From a virus (taxonomy: Duplodnaviria > Caudoviricetes): a stretch of DNA of 24,967 nucleotides. The DNA lies in the IMG/VR virus record IMGVR_UViG_3300045457_000062, positions 1 to 24,967 of that record, one strand, 5' to 3'. The translations under genes and the position numbers were made by a program. The notes beneath the pieces were generated by a model. It made no database searches and was not told the DNA's origin. It saw only the letters and a program-made list of their open reading frames with translations. This document shows, one piece after another, positions 1 to 24,967 of this stretch; the stretch's first letter is position 1; the number at the start of each line of letters is the position of its first letter.

Positions 1-106
1 CAGTGCCAATGAATCCTGTTACGTCACCAGCAGCAACACCGTCGTCAACGATGCCTGCGTATTCATTATCAATCTCTGATAATAGGTTGTTAAAAATGTC
101 TGACAT
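1..106 (-). CDS. uvsX: UvsX/RecA-like recombinase, N-terminal part (runs off the window)
   Basis: Manual translation MSDIFNNLLSEIDNEYAGIVDDGVAAGDVTGFIGT... resembles the N-termini of T4-like UvsX proteins before the TGSY motif. AGGAG RBS at 113-117. Position downstream of gp43 matches T4-like synteny. Confidence 0.75.
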   Translation of the reverse strand, partial: MSDIFNNLLSEIDNEYAGIVDDGVAAGDVTGFIGT

Positions 107-118
107 AAGATTCTCCTT

Positions 119-1081
119 TTAGTCAGTGAAAAATTCTTCAAGATTACAAGTCTGGCTATTATATGCATGTTCAACTCTGGCTTGTGCGATTTCAAAGTAA
201 TCTTTGTCTCTCTCGATCCCGATAAACTTGTATCCTTCAAAGCCACATGCTTTACCAGTTGTGCCTGATCCCATAAAAGGATCAAGAACTATGCCACCTT
301 TCTGTGTTACTAGTTTGACAAGATATTTCATCAAGTCTGTTGGCTTCACAGTTGGATGATTATTCTTATATTCTGTATTTCTTCCTGCTGATAGAGATGA
401 TGCGTTACCGGATGCTCCTCCACCAGTTTGAAATGTTACGATCTTCTTTGCTAGAAATTGTTCTAGTCCTTCATCACGATCAGACTTAGACGCTTTAGCA
501 GAATAGAAGAAACGTCCTTCAGGTATATCAATAGCGCCATCATGGATGACATTAGCAGGATAACGACCTAATGGATTATCCACTAGTTCTGCTTTTGCTT
601 CTTTATCGGTCTTCCAAATACCACCTCTTGGATTTGTCCATTTTTTTGCGCCTTCTGGAAGTCTACTCTCTTCTATATTCAATCCACCAGTGCCATACTG
701 TGATAGATTATCTTTACGTGATCCATCAAAAGGTTTGCGAGCAACTACGATAGGTTCATGTGCGGGTTTTAGATTTCCTGCTTTAGGAAATCCAGTGCCA
801 TACAGCCACATGATCTGGTCCCTAATTTCAAATCCAGCATCTTCAATCTTAATAGCACCACGATGATATGTGCGTGATCCAAAGAACGCAAGTAAGTGTC
901 CACCAGGCTTCAATACACGAAGAACCTCCCGCCAAATATCGGCGGAAGGCACATCATAGTCCCATGAATTACCCATGAATGATAATCCGTAGGGCGGATC
1001 GGTCACACAAGAGTCAATAGAGTTGTCTACTAACTTTTTAAGTTCAACTAAACAATCACCATTGTAAAGTTCAAAGTTCAT
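119..1081 (-). CDS. Orphan N6-adenine/N4-cytosine DNA methyltransferase (beta class)
   Basis: Catalytic DPPY near the N-terminus, HPTVKP and SAM-binding DPFMGSGTT near the C-terminus. No cognate endonuclease adjacent. Confidence 0.92.
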   Translation of the reverse strand: MNFELYNGDCLVELKKLVDNSIDSCVTDPPYGLSFMGNSWDYDVPSADIWREVLRVLKPGGHLLAFFGSRTYHRGAIKIEDAGFEIRDQIMWLYGTGFPKAGNLKPAHEPIVVARKPFDGSRKDNLSQYGTGGLNIEESRLPEGAKKWTNPRGGIWKTDKEAKAELVDNPLGRYPANVIHDGAIDIPEGRFFYSAKASKSDRDEGLEQFLAKKIVTFQTGGGASGNASSLSAGRNTEYKNNHPTVKPTDLMKYLVKLVTQKGGIVLDPFMGSGTTGKACGFEGYKFIGIERDKDYFEIAQARVEHAYNSQTCNLEEFFTD

Positions 1082-1251
1082 GCTACCTCTTTAAAATATG
1101 TTTGTAGTTCTTCACTCATTTCTTTTAGAACATGGCCACCTACACCTACACGAATGACATTACATAGTTCAATCACGTTGTCAGGTGTAATCTTGTCGTC
1201 AGGCTTGAACTCATATAGTTTGCCTGGTGAATATTTGTTGTCTTCTGTCAT
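1078..1251 (-). CDS. Hypothetical protein, 57 aa (MTEDNKYSPG...)
   Basis: ATG overlaps the gp43 stop (ATGA), and its own stop overlaps the methyltransferase start. Start re-assigned from the ORF track. Confidence 0.7.
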   Translation of the reverse strand: MTEDNKYSPGKLYEFKPDDKITPDNVIELCNVIRVGVGGHVLKEMSEELQTYFKEVA

Positions 1252-3800
1252 TTGAAAAAGTCCTCTAAACTGGCAGTTCTCTCTGCCTTCCAACCGATTG
1301 CTTCCAGAATGATCTTTAGTGGTTCTAGAAACGACTTCTCAAATTGGGTTGAGTAGTCGATATACTTGTGTAAGTCAAACTCTTCCGGTATACCTCCTTG
1401 CGGAAAAGCAATCACATTAGATTGCACAGTGTTGGGTTCTTTAAGAAAGATAAACTTGATCTTCTCGCCATTGTTGATTAGTGGATACTTATCAGTAAGG
1501 CTATGAACCCGTAGAAAGTTATTATATACAAGAGAACCACGAACATGGATAGGGCAACCTGATGCATAAATGCTTCTCTTGTCTGCATACTTAACCATTC
1601 CATTAACACCACGAGGAAAAGAAATGTCCGAAAGAGGAAGAGTTTCAAACTCTCCACGAAACTGCTGAATGAACTCCTGAACTGCTGATTCATCTGCACC
1701 AAATATAACATCAATCGCCTCTCTTAGTTTGTCTCTACATGCTGTAGGTGTGGAACTCTTGATCATTTCAAGGCCCATAACTTTCTTCTTAGGATGTGCG
1801 TATTGCACACCTTCAGAGTTATGGACATTTAGAATATAACGCTTCTTGGCAGTCCAGATTGCTTTGTCTGCCAAGACTTCACGCTTCATGACAATCTTTT
1901 GCTGATAAACGTTAGTATATTCACCAAGACTTGCACAAGCCTTATCAATAACACGTTGTATTCCAGTTTCACACGCTCTATCCAAGAAAGTGATTGTACC
2001 GGCTGTATCGATAGTTCTATCATCCGACGAACAGGCTTGTCGGACCAAATCAGCAAGTCGCAAGTATACCGAGTCAGTATCGACCGCAATGACATAATCT
2101 TTCTCCGTCTTTAGTATTTTGTTTAGATATTTGTTGATGCTGTTTTCAATCCAGCGGATGCTAAGTTGTCCAGTAGTCGTAACGGCAATAGCATTACGAA
2201 GATCAAAGAAACGAAAATACTTTGAACCCATTGCACCATAGAGTGAGTTGAGTGATACTTTCTTAGAGAGTTGCAGGTTGTTATATCTTGCAATCTTGTT
2301 TTTAAGTTCTTTCTTCTTATCAGGATCAGTCTCTATCTCATATGCTGCCTGTGCTTCAAGCATCGCCTTCTTATACACCTTACGATCAGCAAACATCTTC
2401 TCAACCATTTCAGGCATGAAGCCTTGCTTATCACGGCGATAGAACTGACCGTTTGCTGTCAAACAAACATTCTCGTCCTTTAGAAAGGATGTATCAATAG
2501 ACTGATTGAGTAGTTTATCAACACTGACACCAGAGGCAATAACAGAACGCATAGCATCGCTATAAGAATCAAATTCAACAATCGTCTCAGGAGAGATATT
2601 GGACCCCATAATAACAGACGGATACTCTGAGTTAACGTCAAAACTAGCCACCCAATCATGGAAACCAATAATAGGGTCTTTAACATATGCGCCAACATAG
2701 GCAGCCTCCTTCTCGTGTTTCTCAATAGGAGGGACAACTATGTTCTTTGATTTCAAATGATGAAAACAAATAACGTCCCACATACGGACCTGTGCGAACA
2801 CGTCCTCGTAGTTACACTTGTTATCATAAGATAAAGTTAGTGCTAGTTCAATAAACTTACCCTTGTCATCAATACGATCAACAAGATCAACGTCTTTGAT
2901 GTTATAGTCGATGAACTTTTGATAATCTTCCTTGTATAAGTTATGCAAGGTACCAAATTCTTCATATGATATTTTATGCTCACCAAGTTCAACATGAGCA
3001 ATATTGTCTAGTCGGTATGACTCTTGTGAGTATCCGCCAGATGCATATTTCTTATATAGGGTAATCATATCAAGCGTGGAGATACCAAGGATAGAATACC
3101 CCTGACCACGACGACCCATACCCAGGTCTAATGTTTTGGAGTTGATAACATTCCAAGGAGAAAGTTTCTTTGCTTCATTCTCACTCATAATCTTTGTGAT
3201 ACGATTTACAAGATATGGTATATCAAATTGCTCTACGTTCCATCCTGTAATGATATCTGGATACTCTGACTGCCACCAACCAAGAAACTTACGAATAAGT
3301 TCAAACTCGTCAGCACATCGGTAATATACAACATCTTCACGTTTGTTGTTATAGTCACCTGTTCCAAATGTGACAAAGCGACCGTCCATCTTCACTGTGA
3401 TGGCGGTTAAAGGTTCAGATGCCGTTTCAGGTTCAGGAAATCCATTCTCTGAGCCAACTTCAATATCAATGTTGGCTACTTTGATATGTGAGATATCCCA
3501 ATCAACGGTGCCTGGAAACTCGTCGGCAATAAAGCAATATTGATACCGTTGATTGCCGTAAATTTTAAAGTTCTCAATGCCTTCATACTGCTTAACAAAA
3601 TCACGACAATCACGAATGCTGCCAGGCTTTACAGACCCAACATACTCACCATGAATTGTCGTGTATTTTGTTGGCTTGTCGGAAGGCACGAACAAGGTGG
3701 GATTGTAATCCACCTTGAGTCGCACACGCTTTCCATTCTCAACACCACGATATAGGATTTTACCACCCCATATCTCAACATTTGTATAAAATTTATTCAT
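1248..3800 (-). CDS. 43: Family B DNA polymerase, T4 gp43-like
   Basis: ExoI DIE, ExoII WNVEQFDIPY, ExoIII YNIKDV. Polymerase motif A SFDVNSEYPS, motif B KVSLNSLYG, motif C DTDS, KKRY. C-terminal clamp-binding SLEDFF. Confidence 0.98.
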   Translation of the reverse strand: MNKFYTNVEIWGGKILYRGVENGKRVRLKVDYNPTLFVPSDKPTKYTTIHGEYVGSVKPGSIRDCRDFVKQYEGIENFKIYGNQRYQYCFIADEFPGTVDWDISHIKVANIDIEVGSENGFPEPETASEPLTAITVKMDGRFVTFGTGDYNNKREDVVYYRCADEFELIRKFLGWWQSEYPDIITGWNVEQFDIPYLVNRITKIMSENEAKKLSPWNVINSKTLDLGMGRRGQGYSILGISTLDMITLYKKYASGGYSQESYRLDNIAHVELGEHKISYEEFGTLHNLYKEDYQKFIDYNIKDVDLVDRIDDKGKFIELALTLSYDNKCNYEDVFAQVRMWDVICFHHLKSKNIVVPPIEKHEKEAAYVGAYVKDPIIGFHDWVASFDVNSEYPSVIMGSNISPETIVEFDSYSDAMRSVIASGVSVDKLLNQSIDTSFLKDENVCLTANGQFYRRDKQGFMPEMVEKMFADRKVYKKAMLEAQAAYEIETDPDKKKELKNKIARYNNLQLSKKVSLNSLYGAMGSKYFRFFDLRNAIAVTTTGQLSIRWIENSINKYLNKILKTEKDYVIAVDTDSVYLRLADLVRQACSSDDRTIDTAGTITFLDRACETGIQRVIDKACASLGEYTNVYQQKIVMKREVLADKAIWTAKKRYILNVHNSEGVQYAHPKKKVMGLEMIKSSTPTACRDKLREAIDVIFGADESAVQEFIQQFRGEFETLPLSDISFPRGVNGMVKYADKRSIYASGCPIHVRGSLVYNNFLRVHSLTDKYPLINNGEKIKFIFLKEPNTVQSNVIAFPQGGIPEEFDLHKYIDYSTQFEKSFLEPLKIILEAIGWKAERTASLEDFFK

Positions 3801-6088: not shown

Positions 6089-6316
6089 TTATAGATCAAC
6101 CTTGTGTGACTCGACTGTGTTTGTTGAGTTGGTAACATTGTTGTCCTTAGCGGCAACACCAACACCAAGTAGTGCTAGAACAAATGGCCATACTTCATCA
6201 AGTGGAGGAAGTGGCATTGACTCTGGCCAAACACCGGCATACTTTAGACCATATGCTACAACAGGAATAAGTGCAGCAACAGTGGTCTTCCAGTTAGCGG
6301 TAATATTCTTGAACAT
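6089..6316 (-). CDS. Holin-like small membrane protein
   Basis: Two hydrophobic segments and the NWKTT ... AKD.NVT pattern seen in small phage membrane proteins. Strong AAAGGAG RBS; adjacent to the spanins. Confidence 0.55.
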   Translation of the reverse strand: MFKNITANWKTTVAALIPVVAYGLKYAGVWPESMPLPPLDEVWPFVLALLGVGVAAKDNNVTNSTNTVESHKVDL

Positions 6317-6330
6317 GATAATCTCCTTTC

Positions 6331-6362
6331 GAAAGAGAACCCGAAGGTTCCTTTCTATTTAG
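6331..6362 (-). promoter_or_regulatory. C(UUCG)G hairpin with an upstream CTAAATA late-promoter-like element
   Basis: Minus strand reads TCTAAATA-GAAAGGAACC-TTCG-GGTTCTCTTTC-GAAAGGAG-ATTATC-ATG. Confidence 0.55.
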
Positions 6363-6366
6363 AGAT

Positions 6367-6603
6367 TTACTGAATTTGATAAACCGCTGTGCCACAAGAT
6401 GGCTTGATTACAACAGTTCCCTCCCATGGACGTAGCCAACCACTATGCCAAGTTCCCTGAACACAATACATGCCACGATGAACTGGAACAGACCAGTCAC
6501 CAGTAAATGGTGGATCCTGAACTGGATTATAATAAGTGCCATATGGTGCTGCAAAGGCAGCGGTGCTAAACATTAGAGCAGCAATAACTAAAATCTTTCT
6601 CAT
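6367..6603 (-). CDS. Small exported protein
   Basis: Sec signal peptide MRKILVIAALMFSTAAFA; mature part has two Cys. Confidence 0.75.
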   Translation of the reverse strand: MRKILVIAALMFSTAAFAAPYGTYYNPVQDPPFTGDWSVPVHRGMYCVQGTWHSGWLRPWEGTVVIKPSCGTAVYQIQ

Positions 6604-6836
6604 AGTCCTAGAACTCCTAGACCTAGAAGACCACGATCCGGACCATCAACAGTTACATCAACATCACGGCCATCAACATCGACTTCAACATTAGAACCGA
6701 CTGGTGCCTTAACTGTCACACCCTTTTCAGTTACCAATGCACCCGTGCCGTTTGTTGAAGTTGTTGGTCGCTTATGTGCTAGTGCGGATCCTGTTAGAGC
6801 AACAACAATAGCGGTAGCAATAAAAAACTTATTCAT
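6600..6836 (-). CDS. Small exported protein
   Basis: Signal peptide MNKFFIATAIVVALTGSALA; V-D-V alternating beta segment; C-terminal GLLGLGVLGL. Confidence 0.75.
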   Translation of the reverse strand: MNKFFIATAIVVALTGSALAHKRPTTSTNGTGALVTEKGVTVKAPVGSNVEVDVDGRDVDVTVDGPDRGLLGLGVLGL

Positions 6837-6837
6837 A

Positions 6838-7032
6838 CTATTCACCTTTCTGTTCAACATCCTTATTAAAGTTGTCGGGATGTTTCATAATGTCCGCAAG
6901 AAAAACAACCAGTTCCTGTAACTTGTCTTTGTTATATTCTGCGGCAATCTTGCCCTCTTCACGAATATAAGAGGTTAGTAAGCAATATGCCTCACTAACA
7001 GCATCGTAACTTACCTTATCTCCAACGTGCAT
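6838..7032 (-). CDS. Hypothetical protein
   Basis: AAGGAG RBS; 64 aa; operon packing. Confidence 0.7.
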   Translation of the reverse strand: MHVGDKVSYDAVSEAYCLLTSYIREEGKIAAEYNKDKLQELVVFLADIMKHPDNFNKDVEQKGE

Positions 7033-7044
7033 GTAGTTCTCCTT

Positions 7045-7209
7045 TTAACATTTAAATCTTACCGTGGCATCTTTCCATTCACCCATAACTGGGACCTGCG
7101 CCTTAACAGTTTTCAACTGACATACACGAGGTTCAATCTTTACTTGATGTGTCTCACATTCACCTGTCTGTAGGCAAATGCTAATGACAGCAAACACTAA
7201 CTCTTTCAT
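7045..7209 (-). CDS. Small Cys-containing protein, 54 aa, absent from the ORF track
   Basis: MKELVFAVISICLQTGECETHQVKIEPRVCQLKTVKAQVPVMGEWKDATVRFKC; GGAG RBS, ATGA overlap, four Cys. Confidence 0.7.
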   Translation of the reverse strand: MKELVFAVISICLQTGECETHQVKIEPRVCQLKTVKAQVPVMGEWKDATVRFKC

Positions 7210-7385
7210 GATTTATTCTCCGACAATACATGATGGGCAATATCGAGAATTTCATCTAATGTGGCTGCTTTTGTGATATCCTGCAATGCCTGTTTATAGG
7301 CATCTCTTTCGTCCATAATATCATAGACAGTTGTAGGTTTATGTTCTCGCATCTTCTGAATGCCTACAATAGTATCTTGATCCAT
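7206..7385 (-). CDS. Hypothetical protein, 59 aa, absent from the ORF track
   Basis: MDQDTIVGIQKMREHKPTTVYDIMDERDAYKQALQDITKAATLDEILDIAHHVLSENKS; stop overlaps the next ATG. Confidence 0.7.
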   Translation of the reverse strand: MDQDTIVGIQKMREHKPTTVYDIMDERDAYKQALQDITKAATLDEILDIAHHVLSENKS

Positions 7386-7464
7386 AACTCTTCCTTACAA
7401 TACAAATAGAATGGAAATGTATAACAGTCCAATGAATGCGCCTAACAATGTAGGCCAATAACTG

Positions 7465-7638
7465 TTACTCTCCTTGAGACATGGAGACGGCACGGTGGTA
7501 GTAACGCTCGTATATTGACAGACGATCCTCTTCCGAGTAGTCTGCGGGAATATCAATACCTTTGACTTTTCGCCATACTTCATTTGCCATCTCCAATCTA
7601 AACTGTTTATCTTTTTCTTCTTTAGTCTTCTCTTCCAC
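7465..7638 (-). CDS. Hypothetical protein, 57 aa
   Basis: GTG start (MEEKTKEEKDKQFRLEMANEVW...) preceded by GGAG. Confidence 0.6.
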   Translation of the reverse strand: MEEKTKEEKDKQFRLEMANEVWRKVKGIDIPADYSEEDRLSIYERYYHRAVSMSQGE

Positions 7639-7744
7639 GTAGATACTCCAATAGACTAAAAATAGTGTAGGCAACAAATGTGCCTACAACAAACCAGAAC
7701 AACCAGTTGAGTGCTAGTTCACCTAGTGATTCATATTCATTCAT
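7622..7744 (-). CDS. Single-TM small membrane protein, 40 aa, absent from the ORF track
   Basis: MNEYESLGELALNWLFWFVVGTFVAYTIFSLLEYLRGRED; TAATG overlap with the upstream stop. Confidence 0.65.
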   Translation of the reverse strand: MNEYESLGELALNWLFWFVVGTFVAYTIFSLLEYLRGRED

Positions 7745-7977
7745 TATTTAGTTCTCTCTGAAATAGTTCTCTCGGCAAGGTCGATGAATCCTTGTCTTAG
7801 TTTTTCTTCTAAGATATCAGGTCCATCTCTCCTTAGCATATTACGAAGAAAGGTGCCATCTTTAACCATGACCCTCTCAAATAGTTCTCCTGTTTCATCA
7901 TTGATTAGATCGATATAAAACGGTCTTGGACCGATATACTTTTTCCATGAAGGTCTACGTCTTGCTTTCTTGCTCAT
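7744..7977 (-). CDS. Hypothetical protein
   Basis: 77 aa, basic N-terminus, stop/start overlaps at both ends. Confidence 0.7.
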   Translation of the reverse strand: MSKKARRRPSWKKYIGPRPFYIDLINDETGELFERVMVKDGTFLRNMLRRDGPDILEEKLRQGFIDLAERTISERTK

Positions 7978-8384
7978 TATCGTGCTACCTTATTCAAGTA
8001 TTTAAGATCATCAGACTCGGATAGAACCTGAAGACCACCTTTGTTATAGAGCGGCATCACCCGCTTGGCCTTGTCAAGAATGGCCTTACGAGTTTCTTCG
8101 TTTTCTTTATGTAGATTAGCCATCATAGACCGATTGGCCGTGGCGTTAGCAGGTGCATTACACACCTCTTGAATAGACTTTTCATGATGCTTGGTAGAAC
8201 GATCAACCTGCAAGGAGTCTTTATACTCGGACTTCCAGGAAGTGTTCTTGGTTTTCTTTGCTTTGATTTGCTTGGGTGTAAGACCCATGGACTCAAGCCA
8301 CTTGATATGTTCGGCAGTATTAGTCTTTTTAGGCTTGCGTTTACGAAGATTGGTGGTAGTATAATAGACGGGTAAAAGAGCCAT
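7977..8384 (-). CDS. Conserved basic T4-like hypothetical protein
   Basis: GGAGG RBS, first gene after a consensus promoter. C-terminal PLYNKGGLQV motif recalls a family of T4-like hypothetical proteins. Confidence 0.75.
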   Translation of the reverse strand: MALLPVYYTTTNLRKRKPKKTNTAEHIKWLESMGLTPKQIKAKKTKNTSWKSEYKDSLQVDRSTKHHEKSIQEVCNAPANATANRSMMANLHKENEETRKAILDKAKRVMPLYNKGGLQVLSESDDLKYLNKVAR

Positions 8385-8405
8385 GACACCTCCGATATTT
8401 CAAGC

Positions 8406-8434
8406 ATTATAGCAAAAACCGAAGGTATTGTCAA
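8406..8434 (-). promoter_or_regulatory. Consensus sigma70 (early) promoter
   Basis: TTGACA (8434-8429), 17-bp spacer ending in TGC, TATAAT (8411-8406). Confidence 0.88.
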
Positions 8435-8441
8435 TAGGAGT

Positions 8442-8464
8442 GGGTGCGACAAAGTGTCGCACCC
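8442..8464. repeat. Perfect inverted repeat, operator-like or hairpin
   Basis: GGGTGCGACA-AAG-TGTCGCACCC, 7 bp upstream of the -35 box; no U-tract on either side. Confidence 0.8.
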
Positions 8465-8473
8465 CGTTGACAT

Positions 8474-8710
8474 TTATTCTATCTCTTCCCATTCTGGCAT
8501 CATTACCCTTGCACCGCCTGCACGAACAGTTGATTGCCATCCTTGTGTAGCACCTTCACTTGTGTTTGGTTGCCAAGAATATGTTGGTGATGTTTGTGGT
8601 GCGTTAGGTGTTGCTCTTGTCAATGAATGATTGTCCGTTGTCATTGCTAGTTGAGCATTAGTAACCGTGGGGAATACCACCATTGAGATTATCATCAAAT
8701 ATTTCGTCAT
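8474..8710 (-). CDS. Small exported protein
   Basis: Signal peptide MTKYLMIISMVVFPTVTNA; Thr/Pro/Gln-rich mature region. Confidence 0.7.
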   Translation of the reverse strand: MTKYLMIISMVVFPTVTNAQLAMTTDNHSLTRATPNAPQTSPTYSWQPNTSEGATQGWQSTVRAGGARVMMPEWEEIE

Positions 8711-8856
8711 ACATACTTTTTCCTCATTCTTCTATTGGTCATTCTGATATGCCTAGACCATGTGCTACAAAGAAACTCATCATATGGTCTTAGCCATTTG
8801 TATCTACTGCATCGACGACAAACAATGATACTATCTTGATGAATACTAATCCACAT
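8707..8856 (-). CDS. Small basic hypothetical protein, 49 aa, absent from the ORF track
   Basis: MWISIHQDSIIVCRRCSRYKWLRPYDEFLCSTWSRHIRMTNRRMRKKYV; fills the gap and its stop overlaps the next ATG. Confidence 0.45.
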   Translation of the reverse strand: MWISIHQDSIIVCRRCSRYKWLRPYDEFLCSTWSRHIRMTNRRMRKKYV

Positions 8857-9049
8857 CCTTCACTCTTCTCGTATATACTTCTGGTGGAATCTTCTGTGAT
8901 ACTACTTTCCACACACCTGTTACATTCTTTTCTGTTTCTACATAGTCAGCAACCTGATCCATGGAGGGAAACGAAATAGCAAACTCATTTCCATTCTTCT
9001 TGGAATGGACAACATACTTACAAACATCTTCTTTGTAATCAAAAATCAA
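8846..9049 (-). CDS. Hypothetical protein
   Basis: TTG start and GGGAG RBS both lie inside the 34-bp repeat copy. Confidence 0.7.
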   Translation of the reverse strand: MIFDYKEDVCKYVVHSKKNGNEFAISFPSMDQVADYVETEKNVTGVWKVVSQKIPPEVYTRRVKDVD

Positions 9050-9078
9050 AACTGCGCTCCCATCATAGTATCAGAACC
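9045..9078. repeat. 34-bp direct repeat, copy 1 (duplicate of the acyl-CoA dehydrogenase 3' end)
   Basis: atcaaaactgcgctcccatcatagtatcagaacc; 32/34 identical to 9374-9407. Confidence 0.92.
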
Positions 9079-9220
9079 CAACAGGGCGACGATTATGCAC
9101 ATCTTGTAATAAATAATGATACCAATCCGCACCCCAAATCAAACGCTGACGAAACTTACCGTAACGCCAATACTTGCGTTTTACTTCTTTACTACCGTTC
9201 CAATGGAATCGTTTCATCAT
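9071..9220 (-). CDS. Small basic, aromatic-rich protein, 49 aa, absent from the ORF track
   Basis: MMKRFHWNGSKEVKRKYWRYGKFRQRLIWGADWYHYLLQDVHNRRPVGF; GAGG RBS, ATGA overlap. Confidence 0.6.
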   Translation of the reverse strand: MMKRFHWNGSKEVKRKYWRYGKFRQRLIWGADWYHYLLQDVHNRRPVGF

Positions 9221-9378
9221 TTATTCCTCTTTTTTACAATTTCATCAACTTTTTCTTTTGATAGTAGTTCAAGTATTTTTGATTCTTTGTTTATTCTTAC
9301 CCATTGTCCATTTTCACAACAAACAATCGCTTCCATTTCATCATCTGTTACATAACAGGTATCGGTAAGTTTTATCAA
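9217..9378 (-). CDS. Hypothetical protein, 53 aa, absent from the ORF track
   Basis: TTG start overlaps the acyl-CoA dehydrogenase stop. MIKLTDTCYVTDDEMEAIVCCENGQWVRINKESKILELLSKEKVDEIVKKRNK. Confidence 0.65.
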   Translation of the reverse strand: MIKLTDTCYVTDDEMEAIVCCENGQWVRINKESKILELLSKEKVDEIVKKRNK

Positions 9379-9407
9379 AACTCCGCTCCCATCATAGTGT
9401 CAGAACC
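9374..9407. repeat. 34-bp direct repeat, copy 2
   Basis: atcaaaactccgctcccatcatagtgtcagaacc; encodes GSDTMMGAEF-stop on the minus strand. Confidence 0.92.
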
Positions 9408-11087
9408 TTCTCTAATACGCTGCAACAGAAAACTTGTCTCCGGTAGAATACGCTGCATGAAGTATGTGGCATTGTCATGGCGAGTCTTATCATTCGTCTT
9501 TAGACAAATCTTGATGTGTGCCATACCAAGCATAACAAGTCCCATCATCTTCATATAGTCGTAAGAAGCAGAACCAGCATTGTTTGGATTCTTGATAGCA
9601 TTATGCATCAACCATTCCGTTGCTTGCTTTAGTTCATTCAATGATCTTGTCATTGGTTGCACGATTGGATTGATATCCTTATCATATGCATTAGTCAAGA
9701 AACTTTCACTATCCTTGAAGAACTTGGTAATAGCACGACCCATGTTCTTAGGCAACTTACGACCAACAAGGTCAAGTGCCTGGATACCATTGGCACCTTC
9801 ATAGATCATAGCAATACGAGCATCACGGACAATCTGCTCCATGCCATTGTCACGAACATATCCATGACCACCCCATACCTGTTGCATCTTGATAGCATTC
9901 TCAACACCATAATCAGTGATAACGCCTTTGAGAACTGGAGTCATTAGACCAAGACGATCTTCTGCATCTTCCTTCTGTCTATTAATATCTGCTTCTACTG
10001 CCATGTCTGTTGTAGAACCATCAGCATTTACAACATCAACCAATGTTGCTGCTTCCAGTATTAATAACCTAGCAGCCTCGTTGATAGACCTAACATCAAG
10101 GAGCATACGGCGAACGTCAGGATGATCCACAATAGATACAGTACCAGAATCACGAGAAACCAGAGAATAACCTTGCTTACGCTCTTTAGCATATTGCACT
10201 CCATTTTGATAAGCCAACTCCGATTGTGATAGACCGTGAATAGCACAACCTAACCTTAATTCGTTCATCATAACAAACATACCTTGAAGACCCTTACAGC
10301 GTTCTCCAATAAGAAAACCTGTAGCACCATCAAAGTTCATAACACAAGTTGGTGAACCATGAATACCCATCTTTTCTTCAATAGCACCAGCAGATACATT
10401 GTTGTGTGATAGATTAACCAAAAACTTAGGCACAGCAAATAGACTGATACCCTTGACGCCTTCTGGATCACCTTCAACTCTTGCTAGAACAAGATGAAGA
10501 ATGTTCTTTGTTAGATCATGATCACCACCAGAGATAAAAATTTTCTGACCTGTGATTTCAAATGAACCATTGTGCTTGTCTACTGCTTTAGTCTTTAGCA
10601 AACCAAGATCAGTGCCGCAATGCGGTTCTGTTAAACACATTGTTCCTGTCCATTCACCACGAACCATTGGAGGAATGAAATGTTCTTTCTGTGGTGCTGA
10701 ACCAGACACTAGCAGGGTCTTGATAGCTCCACGAGTAATGCCAGGATATAGAGACCAAGCCATATTAGAAGAGGATACAAACTCGTTGAACGCCACCGCA
10801 AGTGTAAACGGCATACCCTGTCCGCCATAGGTTTCAGGAACTGATAAACCAAGCCATCCTCCTTCTGTGAACTGCTTCCAAGGTTCATGAAAACAAAATG
10901 GAACTTCAACATCGCCAGTTGAAAGTCTCCTTGCTCCGATTTCATCCCCTTTCTGATTAGTAGGTGCAATAACATCCTCACATAGTTTTGCTGCTTCTGT
11001 TAAGATTGCCTCAGTATTCTCATTATTGAAACCTAGAACATCACGGAGAAGAAATAGTGTTGATGCTAATGGTGCTGTATATTTCAT
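9375..11087 (-). CDS. Acyl-CoA dehydrogenase (long DmdC/FadE5-like type), host-derived
   Basis: GTMCLTEPHCGTDL, GQKIFISGGDHDL, EEKMGIHGSPTC, QVWGGHGY, IYEGANGIQALDL (catalytic Glu present). Confidence 0.95.
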   Translation of the reverse strand: MKYTAPLASTLFLLRDVLGFNNENTEAILTEAAKLCEDVIAPTNQKGDEIGARRLSTGDVEVPFCFHEPWKQFTEGGWLGLSVPETYGGQGMPFTLAVAFNEFVSSSNMAWSLYPGITRGAIKTLLVSGSAPQKEHFIPPMVRGEWTGTMCLTEPHCGTDLGLLKTKAVDKHNGSFEITGQKIFISGGDHDLTKNILHLVLARVEGDPEGVKGISLFAVPKFLVNLSHNNVSAGAIEEKMGIHGSPTCVMNFDGATGFLIGERCKGLQGMFVMMNELRLGCAIHGLSQSELAYQNGVQYAKERKQGYSLVSRDSGTVSIVDHPDVRRMLLDVRSINEAARLLILEAATLVDVVNADGSTTDMAVEADINRQKEDAEDRLGLMTPVLKGVITDYGVENAIKMQQVWGGHGYVRDNGMEQIVRDARIAMIYEGANGIQALDLVGRKLPKNMGRAITKFFKDSESFLTNAYDKDINPIVQPMTRSLNELKQATEWLMHNAIKNPNNAGSASYDYMKMMGLVMLGMAHIKICLKTNDKTRHDNATYFMQRILPETSFLLQRIREGSDTMMGAEF

Positions 11088-11303: not shown

Positions 11304-11621
11304 TTACACCATATACTTTACTGCATAACCTTTATTCAAAAGGTCTTCGTTAATGTTTTCACCATCGAGGATGATGGTGGCTAGATATCGACCATATTTT
11401 TCTTGTCGATCTTTTACTGTTTTGATTGTTACAGTCTTATTATATAATCGAGAGAATAGATAATCCCTTGTAGTCTTACCTGCTTCTTCTTTTAGTTCTG
11501 GTGCATTGAGTCCATACAATCTAAGTTTTATTTCAATTGAGATATGAAATCCAAGATCGACTAAAACATCTACGGTATCACCATCAACAATTCTCACAAC
11601 TTTTGCTATATATTCATACAT
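11304..11621 (-). CDS. Thermonuclease (SNase-like), no signal peptide
   Basis: VDGDT, RLYGLNAPE, KYGRYLA and INEDLL.KGYA motifs. Confidence 0.9.
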   Translation of the reverse strand: MYEYIAKVVRIVDGDTVDVLVDLGFHISIEIKLRLYGLNAPELKEEAGKTTRDYLFSRLYNKTVTIKTVKDRQEKYGRYLATIILDGENINEDLLNKGYAVKYMV

Positions 11622-12561
11622 CTTTCATACTTTCTATAATATCTTCCAGTGAATATTGTGGTTGGAAATCCAATAGTTCTTTTATCTTTGTAGTATCGGC
11701 CACAAGATAGGAAACATCACCAGGTCTCCTTTCCTCATATCTAACATTCATCTTGCCATTATGAATGATTTCGTTCACTTTGTCAACAACTTCTTTTACG
11801 GAATATCCTTTACCACTTCCTATATTTAGAAGGAGACTTTCATTCTTTTCTTCCATATATCTATACGCTAGTGTATGAGCCCGGCAAACATCCCTAACAT
11901 CAATAAAGTCTCTGACACATGTTCCGTCTTTTGTCCAATAATCTGTTCCGTAGATTACAGGATCTTCTCCTCTGACAAGCAAAGGAATCAAATGTGTTTC
12001 AGGATCATGTTCCTCGTATAGATTTGCTCTTCGATTTCTACCAGCAACATTAAAGTACCGAAGAATGGCACAGTTCATTTCTTTTTCATCTAGTAGAACA
12101 TTCTCAATCATGGCTTTACTCTTACCATATACAGAATAAGGATTGATCGGACATGTCTCAAATAGATGACCAAACGTTGAACTCTCTGACTTACCATATA
12201 CAGCAGCCGTAGATGAAAAGATAAAGTTCTTTATGCCATATTGCTTTGCTTCTTTCATCATACGAAGCGTGCCTGTCACATTGTTAAAGTAATACTTCCA
12301 TGGATCTGACTCACCTTCTTCAACAGATATCTCAGCAGCAAAATGAAAAACGGCATCAATGTGCCGTTTCTTTCCATTTGATAGAACGATAGGATCAAGA
12401 GCCAAGTCTACCTGAATGAACTCGTCATACAAATGCTTGAGATGCTTCTTTTGAACTCTATCGATACCTATAATGTGACAGTCATTATATAATGCACCAA
12501 GTTCATGGCACATATGACTGCCAATATATCCATTACAACCTGTTACAACAAATGTTCTCAT
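11614..12561 (-). CDS. galE: UDP-glucose 4-epimerase (GalE-like)
   Basis: TGCNGYIGSH, HFAA, FSSTAAVYG, YGKSK, LRYFNVAG, E.H.PETHLIP, DGTCVRDFIDV, RRPGD. Start re-assigned to ATG 12561 (ATGA overlap). Confidence 0.88.
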   Translation of the reverse strand: MRTFVVTGCNGYIGSHMCHELGALYNDCHIIGIDRVQKKHLKHLYDEFIQVDLALDPIVLSNGKKRHIDAVFHFAAEISVEEGESDPWKYYFNNVTGTLRMMKEAKQYGIKNFIFSSTAAVYGKSESSTFGHLFETCPINPYSVYGKSKAMIENVLLDEKEMNCAILRYFNVAGRNRRANLYEEHDPETHLIPLLVRGEDPVIYGTDYWTKDGTCVRDFIDVRDVCRAHTLAYRYMEEKNESLLLNIGSGKGYSVKEVVDKVNEIIHNGKMNVRYEERRPGDVSYLVADTTKIKELLDFQPQYSLEDIIESMKDV

Positions 12562-13118
12562 TTTATAGCATTCACCTTTAATACGGCCCAACGAGCAGGC
12601 GCAGGATTACGATCATCTTCTACTCTATAAACTCTGGTGAAACCACATTCATAGAGTAGTTTGGTCAAAGACTCTTCACAAAATCCATTGATATGTCCCA
12701 TACCAGGAATCTTGTGTTCGTCAGGATGACGCCAACCACCAAACAAATAGTCCATGGCATTCTCAAATGGATCAGGATGCATACGAAGCCAAGACACATT
12801 GGCCTTTTCATCCCAATCTTTATGAACGATGCGTTCCATAATCCATAGAACATCGGGACAAGTAATTTCTAGTGTAGCACCCGTCTTCATAATGCGCTTG
12901 ATTTCTTTTAGAACCTTAGGTGCATCAAACTTTGTTAGATGTTCAATCACATCACCAAAATAAACTTTGTCGGCAAAGTCTGCTTCAAAAGGATATGGCA
13001 CATGTCTAAGATCGTGAACGTGAGTTACACCTGCCCACTGGTGCAAATCCATCTTGTATGTTGCATCGGGCTTAGGATGTGGGCCAGAACCAATATCAAT
13101 AATCACTGGCTTATTCAT
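12558..13118 (-). CDS. Class I SAM-dependent methyltransferase (Methyltransf_11-like)
   Basis: DIGSG motif I, HDL, VIEHL, RIMKTGA.L.ITCPD; GGAGG RBS before ATG 13118. Confidence 0.82.
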   Translation of the reverse strand: MNKPVIIDIGSGPHPKPDATYKMDLHQWAGVTHVHDLRHVPYPFEADFADKVYFGDVIEHLTKFDAPKVLKEIKRIMKTGATLEITCPDVLWIMERIVHKDWDEKANVSWLRMHPDPFENAMDYLFGGWRHPDEHKIPGMGHINGFCEESLTKLLYECGFTRVYRVEDDRNPAPARWAVLKVNAIK

Positions 13119-14107
13119 TTCACCTCCACAACATGCTTGAGACACATACGAATTGAATCATCAACTTTCATCTTTGCTTCCCATCCAAGGTCTCTCTTGG
13201 CCTTCTCACAATCAGGAATACGAACACGAACATCGTTCTCATAATCACCTATTGATTCATATAGTAGGAAGTAATCTTCTAGAAGCATAAATTCTTTTGC
13301 TGCAATGTCTTTAATCTTCTCAGCAAGAACACGCATAGAGATTGGTTCTGGATTACCTAGATTGTAAGTCTCATTATCTGTCTTTTCAGAGAATGAATAG
13401 TCAGCAATGGCAGCAGCAACCTCATCAATCCATGTAAAGCACCGAATCTGATAACCATCACCAAGAATAGGCAGAGGCTTCTTCTTATCAACCACAATAT
13501 TCTTGATATAGTCAGCAAAGACATGTGAGATGCCAACTTCTTCTGACTCGCTTCTTTCATATGGTGTAATGATGTTGAATGGACGCCAGATGGTATACTT
13601 TAGACCATGCTGCTTTAGATATGCTTTTGACACTCTTTCACCAACAAACTTTGATAGACCATAGTCTGTATAAGGAGCAGGATTGCTGTCAACAATATCC
13701 TCTGGAACAGGATAAGCGATGTCTTGTGGACAGTTCTCATATACCATAGAAGATGAAATATAAACTACCTTTTTCACTTCATGAGCAACAGCAGCACGAA
13801 GGACGTTATCGTGTAGTGTAATATCCTTATACATCTCACCACAATACTTGTTGAATCCGCCTACACCATAGATGGTAGCAGCAGCCTGAATAATATAGTC
13901 AGGCTTCACTTGCTCTACCAACTTATCAACATTTAATCGGTCTGTAAGATCACACTTGATAAATGTATAATCTGTGCCGGCATGTCCTAGACGTTCACCA
14001 TATCGTGCTAGATTGTCTACACCATAGACAACATGTCCTTTGTTTAATAGTAGCGGAATGACCGCCTGCATTAGTGAACCTTCACTACCTGTAACCAAAA
14101 TCCTCAT
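13115..14107 (-). CDS. NAD-dependent nucleotide-sugar epimerase/dehydratase (extended SDR)
   Basis: ILVTGSEGSL, SSSMVY, YGLSK, RPFN, GDGYQIRCFTW. Confidence 0.88.
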   Translation of the reverse strand: MRILVTGSEGSLMQAVIPLLLNKGHVVYGVDNLARYGERLGHAGTDYTFIKCDLTDRLNVDKLVEQVKPDYIIQAAATIYGVGGFNKYCGEMYKDITLHDNVLRAAVAHEVKKVVYISSSMVYENCPQDIAYPVPEDIVDSNPAPYTDYGLSKFVGERVSKAYLKQHGLKYTIWRPFNIITPYERSESEEVGISHVFADYIKNIVVDKKKPLPILGDGYQIRCFTWIDEVAAAIADYSFSEKTDNETYNLGNPEPISMRVLAEKIKDIAAKEFMLLEDYFLLYESIGDYENDVRVRIPDCEKAKRDLGWEAKMKVDDSIRMCLKHVVEVK

Positions 14108-15369
14108 CGTATATCTCCAACTCTATAAATGCCTGAATTACTTAGTTTACTTTCTGGATACATCTTCCAGATATCTGCCATAATACAATCATCATTAAAA
14201 TCATTTAGTGGCCATTTCTTTTCTGTGCCTGTATGTGGTGTCATTACAATAACAGCATCAAAATGTTCTCTGTATGGAAAACCTTTGTCCTTTGGCCACG
14301 GAACATAGTCATCCCACATATACACCTCGGCTCCATTCTTTCTACATACCTTCTTCATCTTATATGATAGACTGTTTCTTGTATCGTCGCAGTCCTTCTT
14401 GAAGGTCGCACCAAGAATCAAAACACATCTTATCTTAGGATTCATCTCCTTGATACGATTGAAGATGTAGTCTGGCATACCTTCATTGATATGAAACGAA
14501 GTCTGAATAAGATCGGCAAACGGAATGTCTGATAGAAGAAATCGACCGTCTTTGAATAGACATGGGCCGCCGACATTCGGACCTGGTAAAGGAATAGCAT
14601 TTCTTTCATAACCAAGATTTGCTGCCTTGATGACATTATGCATATCTACACCTTGCTTTTCACCAATCATCCAAAACTCATTGGCAAGAGCAAAGGTAAC
14701 ATACCTATACATATTCGTCATGAGTTTGGCAATCTCTGCCTCTCTTGCTTTTAGACGAATGATTTCAGCCTTGACGAATGTTTGTAAAAAGTCTCTAGCC
14801 TTATAAAAAGACATTATAGAACAGGCACCAACTAGTGCTGGTAGAGTGGCAGTCTCTTCAATACCTTTTGTCTGTAGAACTCTTTCAGGAACAAACGTCA
14901 GATAAAAATCTACACCTTCTACCCATTTAGTCTTTTCTTCAATACGATCACGAAGAATTTCTGTTGTGCCCGGTGATACTGTTGATCTTAGCATCACCAA
15001 AGTATCTTTCTTCATATAAGGTATAAGAGTGTTATCAACAAAGTTGAACAAATCATCTAGTCGTGGATTGTTTTCTTCATCAACAGGTGTGCCAAGCATA
15101 ATGCATACAATATCACTTTCTTTGATGAAAGATGGATTGGTTGTGAAAAATATGTTTTCAGTCTTCAAATGCTTTGCTAAAAGTTCTGCGGCACCATGTT
15201 CAACATAAGGAACATTACCTTCTTCTAACTCAAGAATAAGTTCTTCATTCAAATCTACACCACAAACTTTATGTCCTGCATCCGCAACGACAAGAGAAAA
15301 CGGAAGGCCAACGTGACCTCCCGCTCCAATAACTGTAACTTTTTTAGGGGTTGAATCCGCAGTATTCAT
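14104..15369 (-). CDS. UDP-glucose/GDP-mannose dehydrogenase family (WecC-like)
   Basis: IGAGGHVGLP, GTP, RSTVSPGTT, PERV, AEIAKL..N, catalytic GGPCL.KD, GATFK...DDTRNS. Confidence 0.92.
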   Translation of the reverse strand: MNTADSTPKKVTVIGAGGHVGLPFSLVVADAGHKVCGVDLNEELILELEEGNVPYVEHGAAELLAKHLKTENIFFTTNPSFIKESDIVCIMLGTPVDEENNPRLDDLFNFVDNTLIPYMKKDTLVMLRSTVSPGTTEILRDRIEEKTKWVEGVDFYLTFVPERVLQTKGIEETATLPALVGACSIMSFYKARDFLQTFVKAEIIRLKAREAEIAKLMTNMYRYVTFALANEFWMIGEKQGVDMHNVIKAANLGYERNAIPLPGPNVGGPCLFKDGRFLLSDIPFADLIQTSFHINEGMPDYIFNRIKEMNPKIRCVLILGATFKKDCDDTRNSLSYKMKKVCRKNGAEVYMWDDYVPWPKDKGFPYREHFDAVIVMTPHTGTEKKWPLNDFNDDCIMADIWKMYPESKLSNSGIYRVGDIR

Positions 15370-17334: not shown

Positions 17335-17335
17335 A

Positions 17336-18226: not shown

Positions 18227-18843
18227 TACTTATACCAAAAAAATGAACTGTTAGTTGTTAGATTGATTGGTGCGGTAATCTTATTCTTTTCTCTGAAATC
18301 GTCTACGGCACGATGAACAGATTCCAATGCAGAGTAATCATGGCCGCAAAATATACCACCCTTCTTTAGTAAAGGATAGTATGCTTCACAATCTGCTAAT
18401 GTTGCTTCATATGAATGATCGCCATCAACAAAGATAAAGTCAAATGGTGTATCATCTTGTGAATTTAGAATTGTCTTGATCTTAGAGGCTGCATCTAATG
18501 ATGTTTCACGGATCATTTGAACACGTTCACCGAACGACTTTAGGTTCTCTTCGGCAATCATTAGAAACTTATCTATGACCTCTTGATTAAGTTCACCAGC
18601 CCAGTCTTCATATGCTTTATATGGATCGATTGTGTAAAGTTTTAGAACATTATCACAACGACTAAGAATATCATATGTGCTTTCCGCACGACAAGTTCCA
18701 ATTTCAAGTCCCACAAGATTGTCACCTTGTCTCTTTATGTAAGGAACAAGACCTTTAGTAGAAGTCCATTCAATAGGCCATTTACTAGCACTCTTAAGTT
18801 CGTCTACCGTCATAAAATCTGTTTCAGTCAATTCAATTGCCAT
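18226..18843 (-). CDS. Class I SAM-dependent O-methyltransferase (Methyltransf_24-like)
   Basis: GLEIGT, IDPY, FDFIFVDGDHSYE, LLKKGGIFCGHDY. Confidence 0.88.
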   Translation of the reverse strand: MAIELTETDFMTVDELKSASKWPIEWTSTKGLVPYIKRQGDNLVGLEIGTCRAESTYDILSRCDNVLKLYTIDPYKAYEDWAGELNQEVIDKFLMIAEENLKSFGERVQMIRETSLDAASKIKTILNSQDDTPFDFIFVDGDHSYEATLADCEAYYPLLKKGGIFCGHDYSALESVHRAVDDFREKNKITAPINLTTNSSFFWYK

Positions 18844-18844
18844 A

Positions 18845-21106: not shown

Positions 21107-21161
21107 TTGTTTCTCCTATAGTTAGCGAGAAGTAAGGAATGATGCCTTCGTGACACCATTC
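21107..21161 (-). ncRNA. ROSE-like RNA thermometer in the hsp20 5' UTR
   Basis: Hairpin 1 GAAUGGUGUC-ACGAA-GGCAUCAUUC. Hairpin 2 UUCUC-G-CUA-ACUA-UAG-GAGAA pairs the AGGAG SD with a UCGCU motif containing a bulged G. Confidence 0.75.
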
Positions 21162-22885: not shown

Positions 22886-23299
22886 CTATTCGTCTTCGTT
22901 GTGACGTTTCCTACCCAGTGAATACTTAGCGACCAAGTTCCACTCTGGCTTTTCCATATATGATATGATCTTGATTCTGTTTAGTGGTGTTAGAGGTTCT
23001 TTACTCTTGTCAGGATCAACAAGAGTTACAAGTTCCCATTCTGCCAATAGATTGGCAATGGTATTTCTTCTACCACGATCCTCTTCTGAGAAGTCAGTAG
23101 ACTTACCATCTAACATGAACATTTCTTTGAAATGCACCAAATAATAACGACCTTGCTTATGTAGGATGTGACATGACTGATAGAGTGTTTTGTCTTTCTT
23201 AGACGCCACTCCAATACGAGTCAATGTCTCTTTCACTTTTAGAAAGGCCTGTGGATCAGGAAGCCTTACTTCCACGAAGTCTTCTAGGTTTGCTGTCAT
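22886..23299 (-). CDS. regA: RegA translational repressor
   Basis: FLKVKETLTRIGVAS, LYQSCHILHKQGRYYLVHFKEMF.LDG, RRNTIA.LL.EW, W.LV.KY.LG. Confidence 0.97.
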   Translation of the reverse strand: MTANLEDFVEVRLPDPQAFLKVKETLTRIGVASKKDKTLYQSCHILHKQGRYYLVHFKEMFMLDGKSTDFSEEDRGRRNTIANLLAEWELVTLVDPDKSKEPLTPLNRIKIISYMEKPEWNLVAKYSLGRKRHNEDE

Positions 23300-23672
23300 T
23301 TATGCCACCTTTGTTTAGTTCTTTTTTTATTTTTTCTAACTGAGTAGCGTTTAGCAAAACCAATGCTTCTTTGGCCTTTTCATTGGAATAGTTATAATAC
23401 TCCTTTACGGCATCTAAGTTGTCAATGGTCTCACGCTTCTCCCATTTACGAAAAGGGCGTTTATAGCCTCTTATGCTATTTAGCAAAAAATGGTATTGAA
23501 GATTAGCAGGTAGATGTGGATACTTGTTCATCTCATTAGCCTGCATAACGCAATCGTAGTGAAACGAGATGGCACGATTCACTACGAAAGCATTATAGTC
23601 CTTTTCGTTCTCTAGAACATTCTTCTTGGTCTGTAGAATGGATGGTATGATATCTCTGAATAAGTCACTCAT
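23256..23672 (-). CDS. 62: Clamp loader small subunit gp62
   Basis: Y..FVVNRAISF..D....ANEMN, QY.FLLNSIR..KR, VKEYYNYSNEKA, KGG; lies between gp44 and regA. Confidence 0.93.
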   Translation of the reverse strand: MSDLFRDIIPSILQTKKNVLENEKDYNAFVVNRAISFHYDCVMQANEMNKYPHLPANLQYHFLLNSIRGYKRPFRKWEKRETIDNLDAVKEYYNYSNEKAKEALVLLNATQLEKIKKELNKGGINDSKPRRLRGSKAS

Positions 23673-24607
23673 TTTATATCACATTCCACCATGATTTCCG
23701 TCAGACATGCCACAAGATTTAGTTCTTGGTCAGCCACGAATGCTGCCTGATACTGATACTTAGCCAGTGTCACCACGGCAGCAGGAATGGACTCTGGCTT
23801 TAGATACTCATTCAGTCCATCATACACAGTGCGATAAATGAGAGACGGATCAATGTCAGAGTTTAGAACGATCCACTTACGCATGGCACCAAAGTCTTTA
23901 TCTTTTAGTGCTTTGATTAGTTCAGATAAAGATTTAATACCATCAAGTTGACTAACAACACCAGCGTCAATGTTTCCAGACACAGCATGGCGTTGGAGTT
24001 CATTAAGAAGACGCCGATAGTCTGGGAAATACTTTTCAACAATCTTGATGAGAACCTGCTTGTCATATTCAACACCTTCTATCTTTAGAATCTCATTAAC
24101 TCTCTTGAACATCTTAGAAGCCATAAGAGGCTTTTCACTAGACTTCAAGGTAAAGTCAACAACGGCACATCTAGAATGAATAGCGTCCTTGATCTTTGCC
24201 TTGAAGTTACATGTGAAGATGAAAGAACAGTTTTCAGCAAACTTTTCAATCACACCTCTAAGAGCATCTTGCGTATCTGGTGTAAGACCGTCGGCTTCGT
24301 CTAGAATGATAACCTTACGACCACCAGTAAGCGATACGGTTGACGCATAACCCACAACCTTTGTTCTTAGAACATCAATGCCTCTTTCTTCTGAAGAGTT
24401 GATGAAAAGATAGTTACAACCGATTTCATCACACATAGCCATGGCTGCGGTAGTTTTACCACATCCAGCAGGACCAGAAAGAAGGAGATTTGGAATCTCC
24501 CTCTTGGTCACATATTCCTGAAACGCTTTCTTGATACGCTCAGGAAGAACGCAGTCCTCAATCTTGTGAGGACGATACTTTTCTACCCAAAGAAAGTCAT
24601 TGCTCAT
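23669..24607 (-). CDS. 44: Clamp loader AAA+ subunit gp44
   Basis: LWVEKYRP, Walker A GPAGCGKTT, Walker B IILDEAD, SRC motif, FPDYRR.LNELQ. Confidence 0.97.
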   Translation of the reverse strand: MSNDFLWVEKYRPHKIEDCVLPERIKKAFQEYVTKREIPNLLLSGPAGCGKTTAAMAMCDEIGCNYLFINSSEERGIDVLRTKVVGYASTVSLTGGRKVIILDEADGLTPDTQDALRGVIEKFAENCSFIFTCNFKAKIKDAIHSRCAVVDFTLKSSEKPLMASKMFKRVNEILKIEGVEYDKQVLIKIVEKYFPDYRRLLNELQRHAVSGNIDAGVVSQLDGIKSLSELIKALKDKDFGAMRKWIVLNSDIDPSLIYRTVYDGLNEYLKPESIPAAVVTLAKYQYQAAFVADQELNLVACLTEIMVECDIK

Positions 24608-24762
24608 TCATTTTCCTCATAACGAGATGCGCTAAGTTGCATTATAATAGATGTTAGTAGGAAAAACAACCAACGATTTGTATCATCGTGATCCTTAATC
24701 CAAAAGTAAGACGCAGATATAAAGTTTATTACACTTAGCAATTCAAAGATAAGCGCCATCAT
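24604..24762 (-). CDS. Small two-TM membrane protein, 52 aa, absent from the ORF track
   Basis: MMALIFELLSVINFISASYFWIKDHDDTNRWLFFLLTSIIMQLSASRYEENE; ATGA overlaps at both ends. Confidence 0.65.
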   Translation of the reverse strand: MMALIFELLSVINFISASYFWIKDHDDTNRWLFFLLTSIIMQLSASRYEENE

Positions 24763-24967
24763 AGTTGTGTCTTCTCCATCACAGTGGTATAAAACTCTTC
24801 AAAGTCTGTGTTCTCCTGAATCTCAGAGTTGAAGTTTGCCTTGAAGTATGTGCGAGCCATACGACGAATGAGTTTCTTATCAATGTCCAGTTTACCACTT
24901 AGTTCATTGATAGTATCTTTCTGTAGTTCTCGCTCGGCACCAACACGAGTCATGGAGTCATTCAACT
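24759..24967 (-). CDS. dsbA: T4 DsbA-like dsDNA-binding protein (5' end probably outside the window)
   Basis: ...KD.INEL..KLDIDKKLIRRMARTYFKANF..E..E..DFEEFY.TV matches the length and pattern of the T4 DsbA C-terminal part. Confidence 0.7.
   Translation of the reverse strand, partial: LNDSMTRVGAERELQKDTINELSGKLDIDKKLIRRMARTYFKANFNSEIQENTDFEEFYTTVMEKTQL

Follow-up and report, generated by a model that had tools for sequence, protein, structure and literature searches.

Can a DNA methyltransferase of a phage use the sliding clamp of the phage to reach newly replicated DNA? This question is raised by a gene in the stretch of DNA analyzed here (24,967 nucleotides, hereafter the window), which represents an approximately 25-kb piece of the genome of an uncultured T4-like phage (G000). 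The initial annotation of this stretch had pointed out that the encoded methyltransferase ends in TCNLEEFFTD beyond its catalytic domain, that the DNA polymerase gp43, encoded two genes upstream, ends in TASLEDFFK, and that such peptides could bind the clamp gp45. Both endings are indeed present: bases 119-145 read as described, the PF01555 domain of the methyltransferase stops at residue 300, and a single 57-aa ORF lies between the two genes.

On the minus strand of the window, the order of genes is dsbA, gp44, gp62, regA, a sugar-modifying block, gp43, the 57-aa ORF, the methyltransferase gene, and the start of uvsX (Table 1). The start codon of the 57-aa ORF overlaps the stop codon of gp43, and its stop codon overlaps the start codon of the methyltransferase gene, with ATGA junctions, which suggests that the three genes are expressed jointly. 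No match to the 57-aa ORF was found in Pfam, PHROG, NCBIfam, or the Atlas. Two loci extend the window at its ends. L001 is 99.95% identical over window positions 1-1956 and extends through uvsX and a 124-aa gene into the gene for the gp41 helicase (DnaB_C match). L456 is 99.3% identical over window positions 20930-24967 and carries gp45 (L456:3081-3734) approximately 270 bases past the window end; the gp45 gene is absent within the window itself, which ends in dsbA. The phage therefore has a clamp as well as a clamp loader, with gp44 and gp62 in the window and gp45 in L456.

Table 1. Features of the window that are discussed in the text, sorted by position.
Feature	Position	Strand	Evidence and remarks
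uvsX 5' end, next gene downstream of the methyltransferase gene	1..106	-	RecA match, via L001
Candidate gp45-docking tail, L-[D/E]-x-F-F plus stop codon, last 8 codons	119..145	-	59/60 closest homologs
Methyltransferase ORF, 320 aa, open and intact	119..1081	-	PF01555, phrog_67
SAM-binding motif I, F-x-G-x-G, residues 269-273	263..277	-	F269, G271, and G273 invariant in 70/70
Catalytic motif IV, D-P-P-Y, residues 28-31	989..1000	-	Invariant in 70/70 aligned sequences
57-aa ORF between gp43 and the methyltransferase gene	1078..1251	-	Look-alikes in the corresponding position in G001 and G002
gp43 C-terminal peptide, same pattern	1248..1271	-	Also in gp43 of 4/4 relatives G001-G004
gp43, family B DNA polymerase, 850 aa	1248..3800	-	PF00136, PF03104
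regA, translational repressor	22886..23299	-	PF01818
gp62, clamp loader small subunit	23256..23672	-	PF16790
gp44, clamp loader large subunit	23669..24607	-	PF00004, PF21328
dsbA, cut by the window end	24759..24967	-	PF11126

The methyltransferase gene is absent from the interval between gp43 and uvsX in 4 of 4 relatives (G001, which is complete, and the partial G002-G004), and it is therefore considered accessory and dispensable. In G001, a gene of the tryptophan halogenase family (L246:16282-17862) is found directly behind gp43, which points to this interval as a spot for accessory insertions. Beside the methyltransferase gene, whose neighbors are the 57-aa ORF and uvsX, no gene for a cognate endonuclease was found, and the locus is not classed as a type II restriction-modification system. 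Elsewhere in the window (positions 11614-20478, minus strand), a GDP-mannose 4,6-dehydratase, a nucleotide-sugar dehydrogenase, epimerase-like ORFs, and glycosyltransferases are encoded in one block, and none of the genes in this block carries a clamp-type tail. Furthermore, positions 9375-11087 (minus strand) hold a 570-aa acyl-CoA dehydrogenase-family gene with a look-alike in G001.

Judged by its sequence, the protein encoded next to uvsX is an intact beta-class N6-adenine/N4-cytosine DNA methyltransferase. PF01555 covers residues 22-300 (E 3e-38; 132 bits versus a cut-off of 26.7), phrog_67 is matched with E 2e-78, and motif IV precedes motif I, which corresponds to the beta order, with both motifs intact. 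Its nearest solved relatives are CcrM, a DpnA-type enzyme, RsrI, and MboIIA; the PF01555 fold and the order of motif IV before motif I are common to CcrM, the DpnA-type enzyme, M.RsrI, M.MboIIA, and the phage enzyme. With 85.8 bits against the CcrM equivalog profile, the phage protein scores far under the cut-off of 830. Beta-class amino-methyltransferases are often dimers. As for the target site, counts of 4- and 6-base palindromes in the window versus G001 single out no candidate. A second, unrelated methyltransferase-like protein of 539 aa is encoded in the near-identical record G009 (L458:352-1971); its motif I lies before motif IV, its match to PF01555 is weak, and a clamp-type tail is absent from this protein as well as from its G002 relative (L459:1504-3126).

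The specificity of the tail was assessed with a strict pattern, L-[D/E]-x-[F/Y/W]-F at most 4 residues from the C-terminus, in gene calls that follow a plain longest-ORF rule. Of the 41 genes called in the window, gp43 and the methyltransferase gene encode this pattern, versus 0.0055 expected from composition. In the complete relative G001, it is restricted to gp43 (1 of 238 called genes), and it occurs in 0 of the 222 called genes of G005, the gp43 of which has a looser form. A similar motif is found in sub-terminal position in gp55 of G001, G002, and G004, and the gp33 of G001 (L249:18268-18495) is without an aromatic clamp-type tail. In the AlphaFold2 monomer of the methyltransferase (mean pLDDT 76.8), the last core helix spans residues 293-307, residues 311-317 have a pLDDT below 50, and a four-residue helix is placed at 314-317. 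As far as this monomer shows, the tail is predicted to be free and to lie outside the fold.

The same ending is conserved among homologs. The strict pattern was found in 59 of the 60 closest ones (with the window protein counted) and in 83 of the best 120 of 8000 scored; among the same best 120 of 8000, 89 have the relaxed pattern and 6 end in Q-x-x-L-F. Across 57 distinct tails, the linker positions -7 to -2 are variable (1.6-2.8 bits), and even among proteins with as little as approximately 45-60% identity, the motif persists on a linker that has changed. Since the ranking of homologs itself included the tail, a FastTree tree (321 rows) was calculated from core columns only, with the tail columns excluded. 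In this tree, a clade of 70 members around the query (support 0.87) contains 63 proteins with the strict and 68 with the relaxed pattern. Many homologs end right past the last core helix, and the tail is also present on homologs that adjoin gp46 or uvsX instead of gp43. In a search of cultured phages, the best 60 of 1424 and the best 60 of 2401 matched records are mostly small phages, in which the matches stop before the tail. A DNA-level cause of the conservation of the motif was considered as well and rejected, as the ribosome-binding site of uvsX is located 3' of the stop codon, outside the motif codons.

With regard to other classes of clamp motifs, bacterial beta-clamp peptides follow a consensus of the Q-L-x-L-F type, and a motif of this kind (Gln, then L-F within four residues) is absent from the phage methyltransferase tail. 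At position -3, 36 of the 57 distinct tails have Thr, and Gln is outside the five commonest residues there. The tail also lacks the Gln three residues ahead of the aliphatic residue that characterizes the PIP box of PCNA (Q-x-x-h-x-x-a-a, as given in the available part of PMC3012046).

The initial annotation had suggested checking whether the tail is limited to phages that encode gp45. For this purpose, 228 loci from three collections were evaluated, which yielded 217 full homologs (190 distinct); 53 short loci were left out of the context counts. A locus was considered T4-type if it contained a core gene with an identity of at least 40%, with L001 included, and context counts rest on the fetched loci rather than on the best 120 protein hits. 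The raw counts are in line with the suggestion, for tail classes that were defined after the data were seen: 10 of the 14 distinct homologs from T4-type loci have the pattern, 4 have no tail, and none has a beta-type ending, versus 0 of 60 homologs in cellular records with the pattern, 26 of which have a Q-x-x-L-F-like ending and 34 no tail of any kind. Related sequences do not count independently, and a kinship-aware test of this association comprises only 5 independent pairs on supported branches, a number too small for significance; a mean of 2.8 of them go in the expected direction and 0 in the opposite one (median p 0.25). Beside more distant genes for PolB or clamp loaders, the ending is aromatic in 13 of 13 cases (4 with this pattern, 3 with Phe-Trp, 6 with Trp-hydrophobic), and beta-type endings occur in 0 of the 27 homologs beside viral replication genes. 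The 50 loci of at least 10 kb without a marker comprise 2 homologs with the pattern, 1 with a Trp-hydrophobic ending, 9 with a beta-type ending, and 38 with none. One of the 2 with the pattern, L048, is an apparent exception and belongs to a record that carries a gp45-like clamp; the other is L165.

Moreover, the ending of the methyltransferase frequently corresponds to that of the polymerase encoded in the same locus. In 25 loci with both ends, a comparison by eye revealed shared endings in 14, a weak likeness in 9 (which are near-identical loci), and a mismatch in 2. The shared endings comprise 2 of the L-[D/E]-x-F-F, 3 of the Phe-Phe-x-Phe, and 9 of the Trp-hydrophobic type; the last two types represent two other virus groups, whose methyltransferases and polymerases have an ending of another kind in common. 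In many loci, the methyltransferase homolog is encoded directly behind the polymerase, and in L190 and L057 a gp45-family clamp gene adjoins it. L190 belongs to a large phage, in which PolB is encoded next to two methyltransferases, followed by a gp45-family clamp (L190:225-1034, 6109-7497, 7629-8726, 8795-9490); an upstream glucosyltransferase-family protein in this locus ends like the second methyltransferase. In the viruses of the L016 group, an ending of Trp plus a hydrophobic residue is found on the polymerase as well as on the methyltransferase. A 284-aa protein from this group (L016:5723-6577, with look-alikes in L007, L039, and L041) is a candidate for the clamp of these divergent PolB/clamp-loader viruses: the Atlas leads from it to gp45-containing clusters at 0.90-0.91, it has no PHROG match, and no match to a gp45 profile was found in its record.

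In order to see which other proteins end in this way, viral contigs were scanned for the pattern, written in a single codon form, ahead of a stop codon. Of at least 120 matches, 31 do not terminate an ORF of at least 60 aa, 28 are short on flank, and 61 were classed. Among the matches listed, the 61 classed proteins comprise 47 family B polymerases, 8 gp26-type baseplate proteins, 3 DNA methyltransferases (C5, N6/N4, and D12), 1 TET/JBP oxygenase, and 2 unclassified proteins. The L-[D/E]-x-F-F ending is thus chiefly a polymerase tail that recurs on unrelated DNA-modifying enzymes. The latter, a TET/JBP oxygenase and C5, D12-class, and N6/N4 methyltransferases with a polymerase-type tail, are encoded by other viruses (L286:3001-4353, L264:818-2050, L317:3001-3870, L316:3001-4011). 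The baseplate proteins (PF12322), with a gp43-like acidic Phe-Phe end, are found in L263, L276, L279, L281, L299, L307, L324, and L326. Clamp binding by such virion-assembly proteins is unlikely, and since 8 of them among the matches listed share the ending, the pattern by itself is no proof that a protein binds the clamp.

On the side of the clamp, the gp45 encoded in L456 matches the clamps of RB69 and T4 (E 6e-17). The available part of PMC3012046 names Tyr39, Ile107, Phe109, Val217, Trp199, Arg32, and Lys204 as residues of the peptide pocket of RB69 gp45. In the alignment, 4 of the 5 hydrophobic positions stay hydrophobic in the L456 protein (Tyr39 to Leu, Ile107 to Leu, Phe109 to Leu, Val217 to Phe). 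Trp199 is replaced by Gln, and 0 of the 2 basic residues are kept (Arg32 is replaced by Ile, and Lys204 is aligned to a gap), in a part where this sequence alignment is weak.

A possible benefit of a protective methyltransferase is suggested by the scarcity of palindromes in the phage. Counted on both strands, the window contains 0 CGCG sites versus 13 expected, 3 AGCT sites versus 60 expected, and 12 GTAC sites versus 62 expected. In the 162 kb of G001, CGCG is absent versus 160 expected sites, AGCT is found at 0.44 of the expected number, and many 6-base palindromes are absent. Such a strong avoidance of palindromes fits a restriction pressure on the phage lineage.

As the tail is mostly confined to relatives from phages that encode replication machinery of their own, the comparison of sequences and loci suggests that the methyltransferase likely docks on the gp45 of the phage. 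The tail would bind the hydrophobic pocket or the subunit interface of gp45, as the polymerase tail likely does, and clamps at the fork, or left behind it, would concentrate the enzyme on phage DNA. Since the trimeric clamp has more than one site, there could be room for the enzyme to travel alongside the polymerase or in its wake. It would methylate nascent phage DNA ahead of packaging, and the resulting mark, m6A according to the D-P-P-Y motif, or possibly m4C, would protect progeny genomes from host restriction. For this second part, a fork-coupled methylation by the clamp-docked enzyme that counteracts restriction, we see slightly better than even chances. Both parts considered jointly, it is probable that the tail docks on the phage's own gp45 and that the enzyme methylates new phage DNA behind the replisome.

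Different explanations of the tail have to be weighed against this reading. It is conceivable, albeit rather unlikely, that the tail does bind gp45 and that the benefit lies in clamp-loaded phage DNA in general (sites of late transcription, repair, or recombination) or in timing, with little effect on the methylation of progeny. The available part of PMC2988020 describes a role of gp45 in late transcription as well, the accessible text of PMC13216743 reports that the T4 alpha-glucosyltransferase was not mainly driven by clamp binding, and the homologs in cellular records without any tail (34 of 60) agree with such a general role. On the other hand, overlapping stop and start codons tie the gene to gp43, homologs lie directly behind polymerases in many loci, and the ending appears retuned to the ending of each polymerase, which implies selection. 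The variation of the ending with that of the polymerase would also be unexpected of a fold element, and many homologs stop after the last core helix; both observations speak against a tail that is a structural part of the enzyme, e.g., packing across a dimer, or that binds another partner, such as that of gp26. We consider this improbable, while acknowledging that the structure model represents a monomer only and that 8 of the 61 classed proteins with the ending, among the matches listed, are baseplate proteins.

It is even harder to reconcile the data with a neutral leftover, for which recombination would have copied the 3' end of gp43 onto its neighbor, where it would have persisted within a single clade. 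The two genes do neighbor each other, most strict matches fall into few clades, and both Phe codons are identical in gp43 and the methyltransferase gene. However, the Leu and Glu codons as well as the upstream residues differ between the two, the motif is kept with a drifting linker in proteins down to approximately 45-60% identity, and the tail is found beside gp46 or uvsX and on unrelated modifying enzymes as well, so that we regard a neutral copy as very improbable. Finally, members of the family in cellular records carry beta-type endings, and the family can therefore plausibly use the host clamp. Nevertheless, for the phage enzyme itself, binding to the host beta clamp instead of gp45 has next to no probability, considering that its tail does not have the Q-x-x-L-F form and matches that of the phage polymerase, and that the beta type is found in 0 of 27 homologs beside viral replication genes.

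Docking on gp45 would establish a new class of clients for the T4-type replisome through a simple mechanism of one peptide and one clamp, and it would suggest an 8-residue tag for bringing enzymes to the replication fork. More tentatively, and with more doubt than confidence on our part, one widespread methyltransferase family of mobile elements may swap its terminal peptide to fit its clamp (the host beta clamp, gp45, and at least 2 further viral clamps), and several unrelated DNA-modifying enzymes of T4-like phages may have converged on the polymerase tail. If this is true, clamp docking would be a general route by which phages direct modification to the DNA that they replicate and spare that of the host, and the tails could help to find clamps and clamp clients that have so far gone unrecognized.

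A recent review (PMC12707154, available text) lists it among the open questions how methylation can match the high speed of phage replication and how the fork hands on protective marks. Within the accessible passages that our literature search covered, a clamp peptide was found on no DNA methyltransferase of a phage or prokaryote. The gp45-binding epitopes of gp43, gp33, and gp55 from T4 and RB69, as described in the accessible parts of PMC2988020, PMC9690074, and PMC3012046 (RB69 clamp-peptide, 1B8H), resemble the methyltransferase tail in being an acidic-hydrophobic peptide with two aromatics at the extreme C-terminus, preceded by a variable linker, and they share with it the phage setting of a gp45 with gp44/62. 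The T4 tails of gp43, gp33, and gp55 are interchangeable (PMC2988020, available part). However, the T4 epitopes have the L-D-F-L form, whereas the tail of the methyltransferase, a candidate client, takes the form found in environmental T4-like phages, L-[D/E]-x-F-F. Furthermore, its tail is located on an accessory DNA methyltransferase, unlike those of gp43, gp33, and gp55.

Clamp-tethered DNA methylation is textbook knowledge for DNMT1 and PCNA, and the initial annotation had drawn an analogy to this pair. It holds insofar as DNMT1 is a DNA methyltransferase with a clamp-binding motif that acts on newly replicated DNA (PMC9690074, in its accessible part). However, DNMT1 is a eukaryotic C5 maintenance enzyme that acts on hemimethylated CpG, whereas the phage enzyme is an amino-methyltransferase that presumably acts de novo and is protective, and the T4 alpha-glucosyltransferase represents a closer analogy. 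Among methyltransferases of mobile elements, the plasmid enzymes M.EcoGIX and M.BceJIII are likewise linked to the replication machinery, and the clamp is brought up by the authors as a potential intermediary; in contrast, their partner is the host PolI, they act on single strands, and a clamp motif is not given in the available text (PMC7736820). The Bacillus enzyme DnmA gathers near the replisome via substrate binding alone, according to the accessible part of PMC9973331.

For the T4 alpha-glucosyltransferase, the available part of PMC13216743, which cites Sommer 2004 (PMID 15381072), reports that it co-purifies with gp45. Since a DNA glucosyltransferase of T4 is thus already known to associate with the clamp, our finding is less surprising than it appeared at first. 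According to the same part of this source, the enzyme glucosylates hmC, which is a different chemistry, its binding motif is not named, and the share of modification is set by expression strength and enzyme activity, not by gp45 binding. Nonetheless, it is likewise a DNA-modifying enzyme of a phage that counteracts restriction, is associated with the clamp, and has been proposed to act along with replication (PMC13216743, available part), as we propose here for the methyltransferase.
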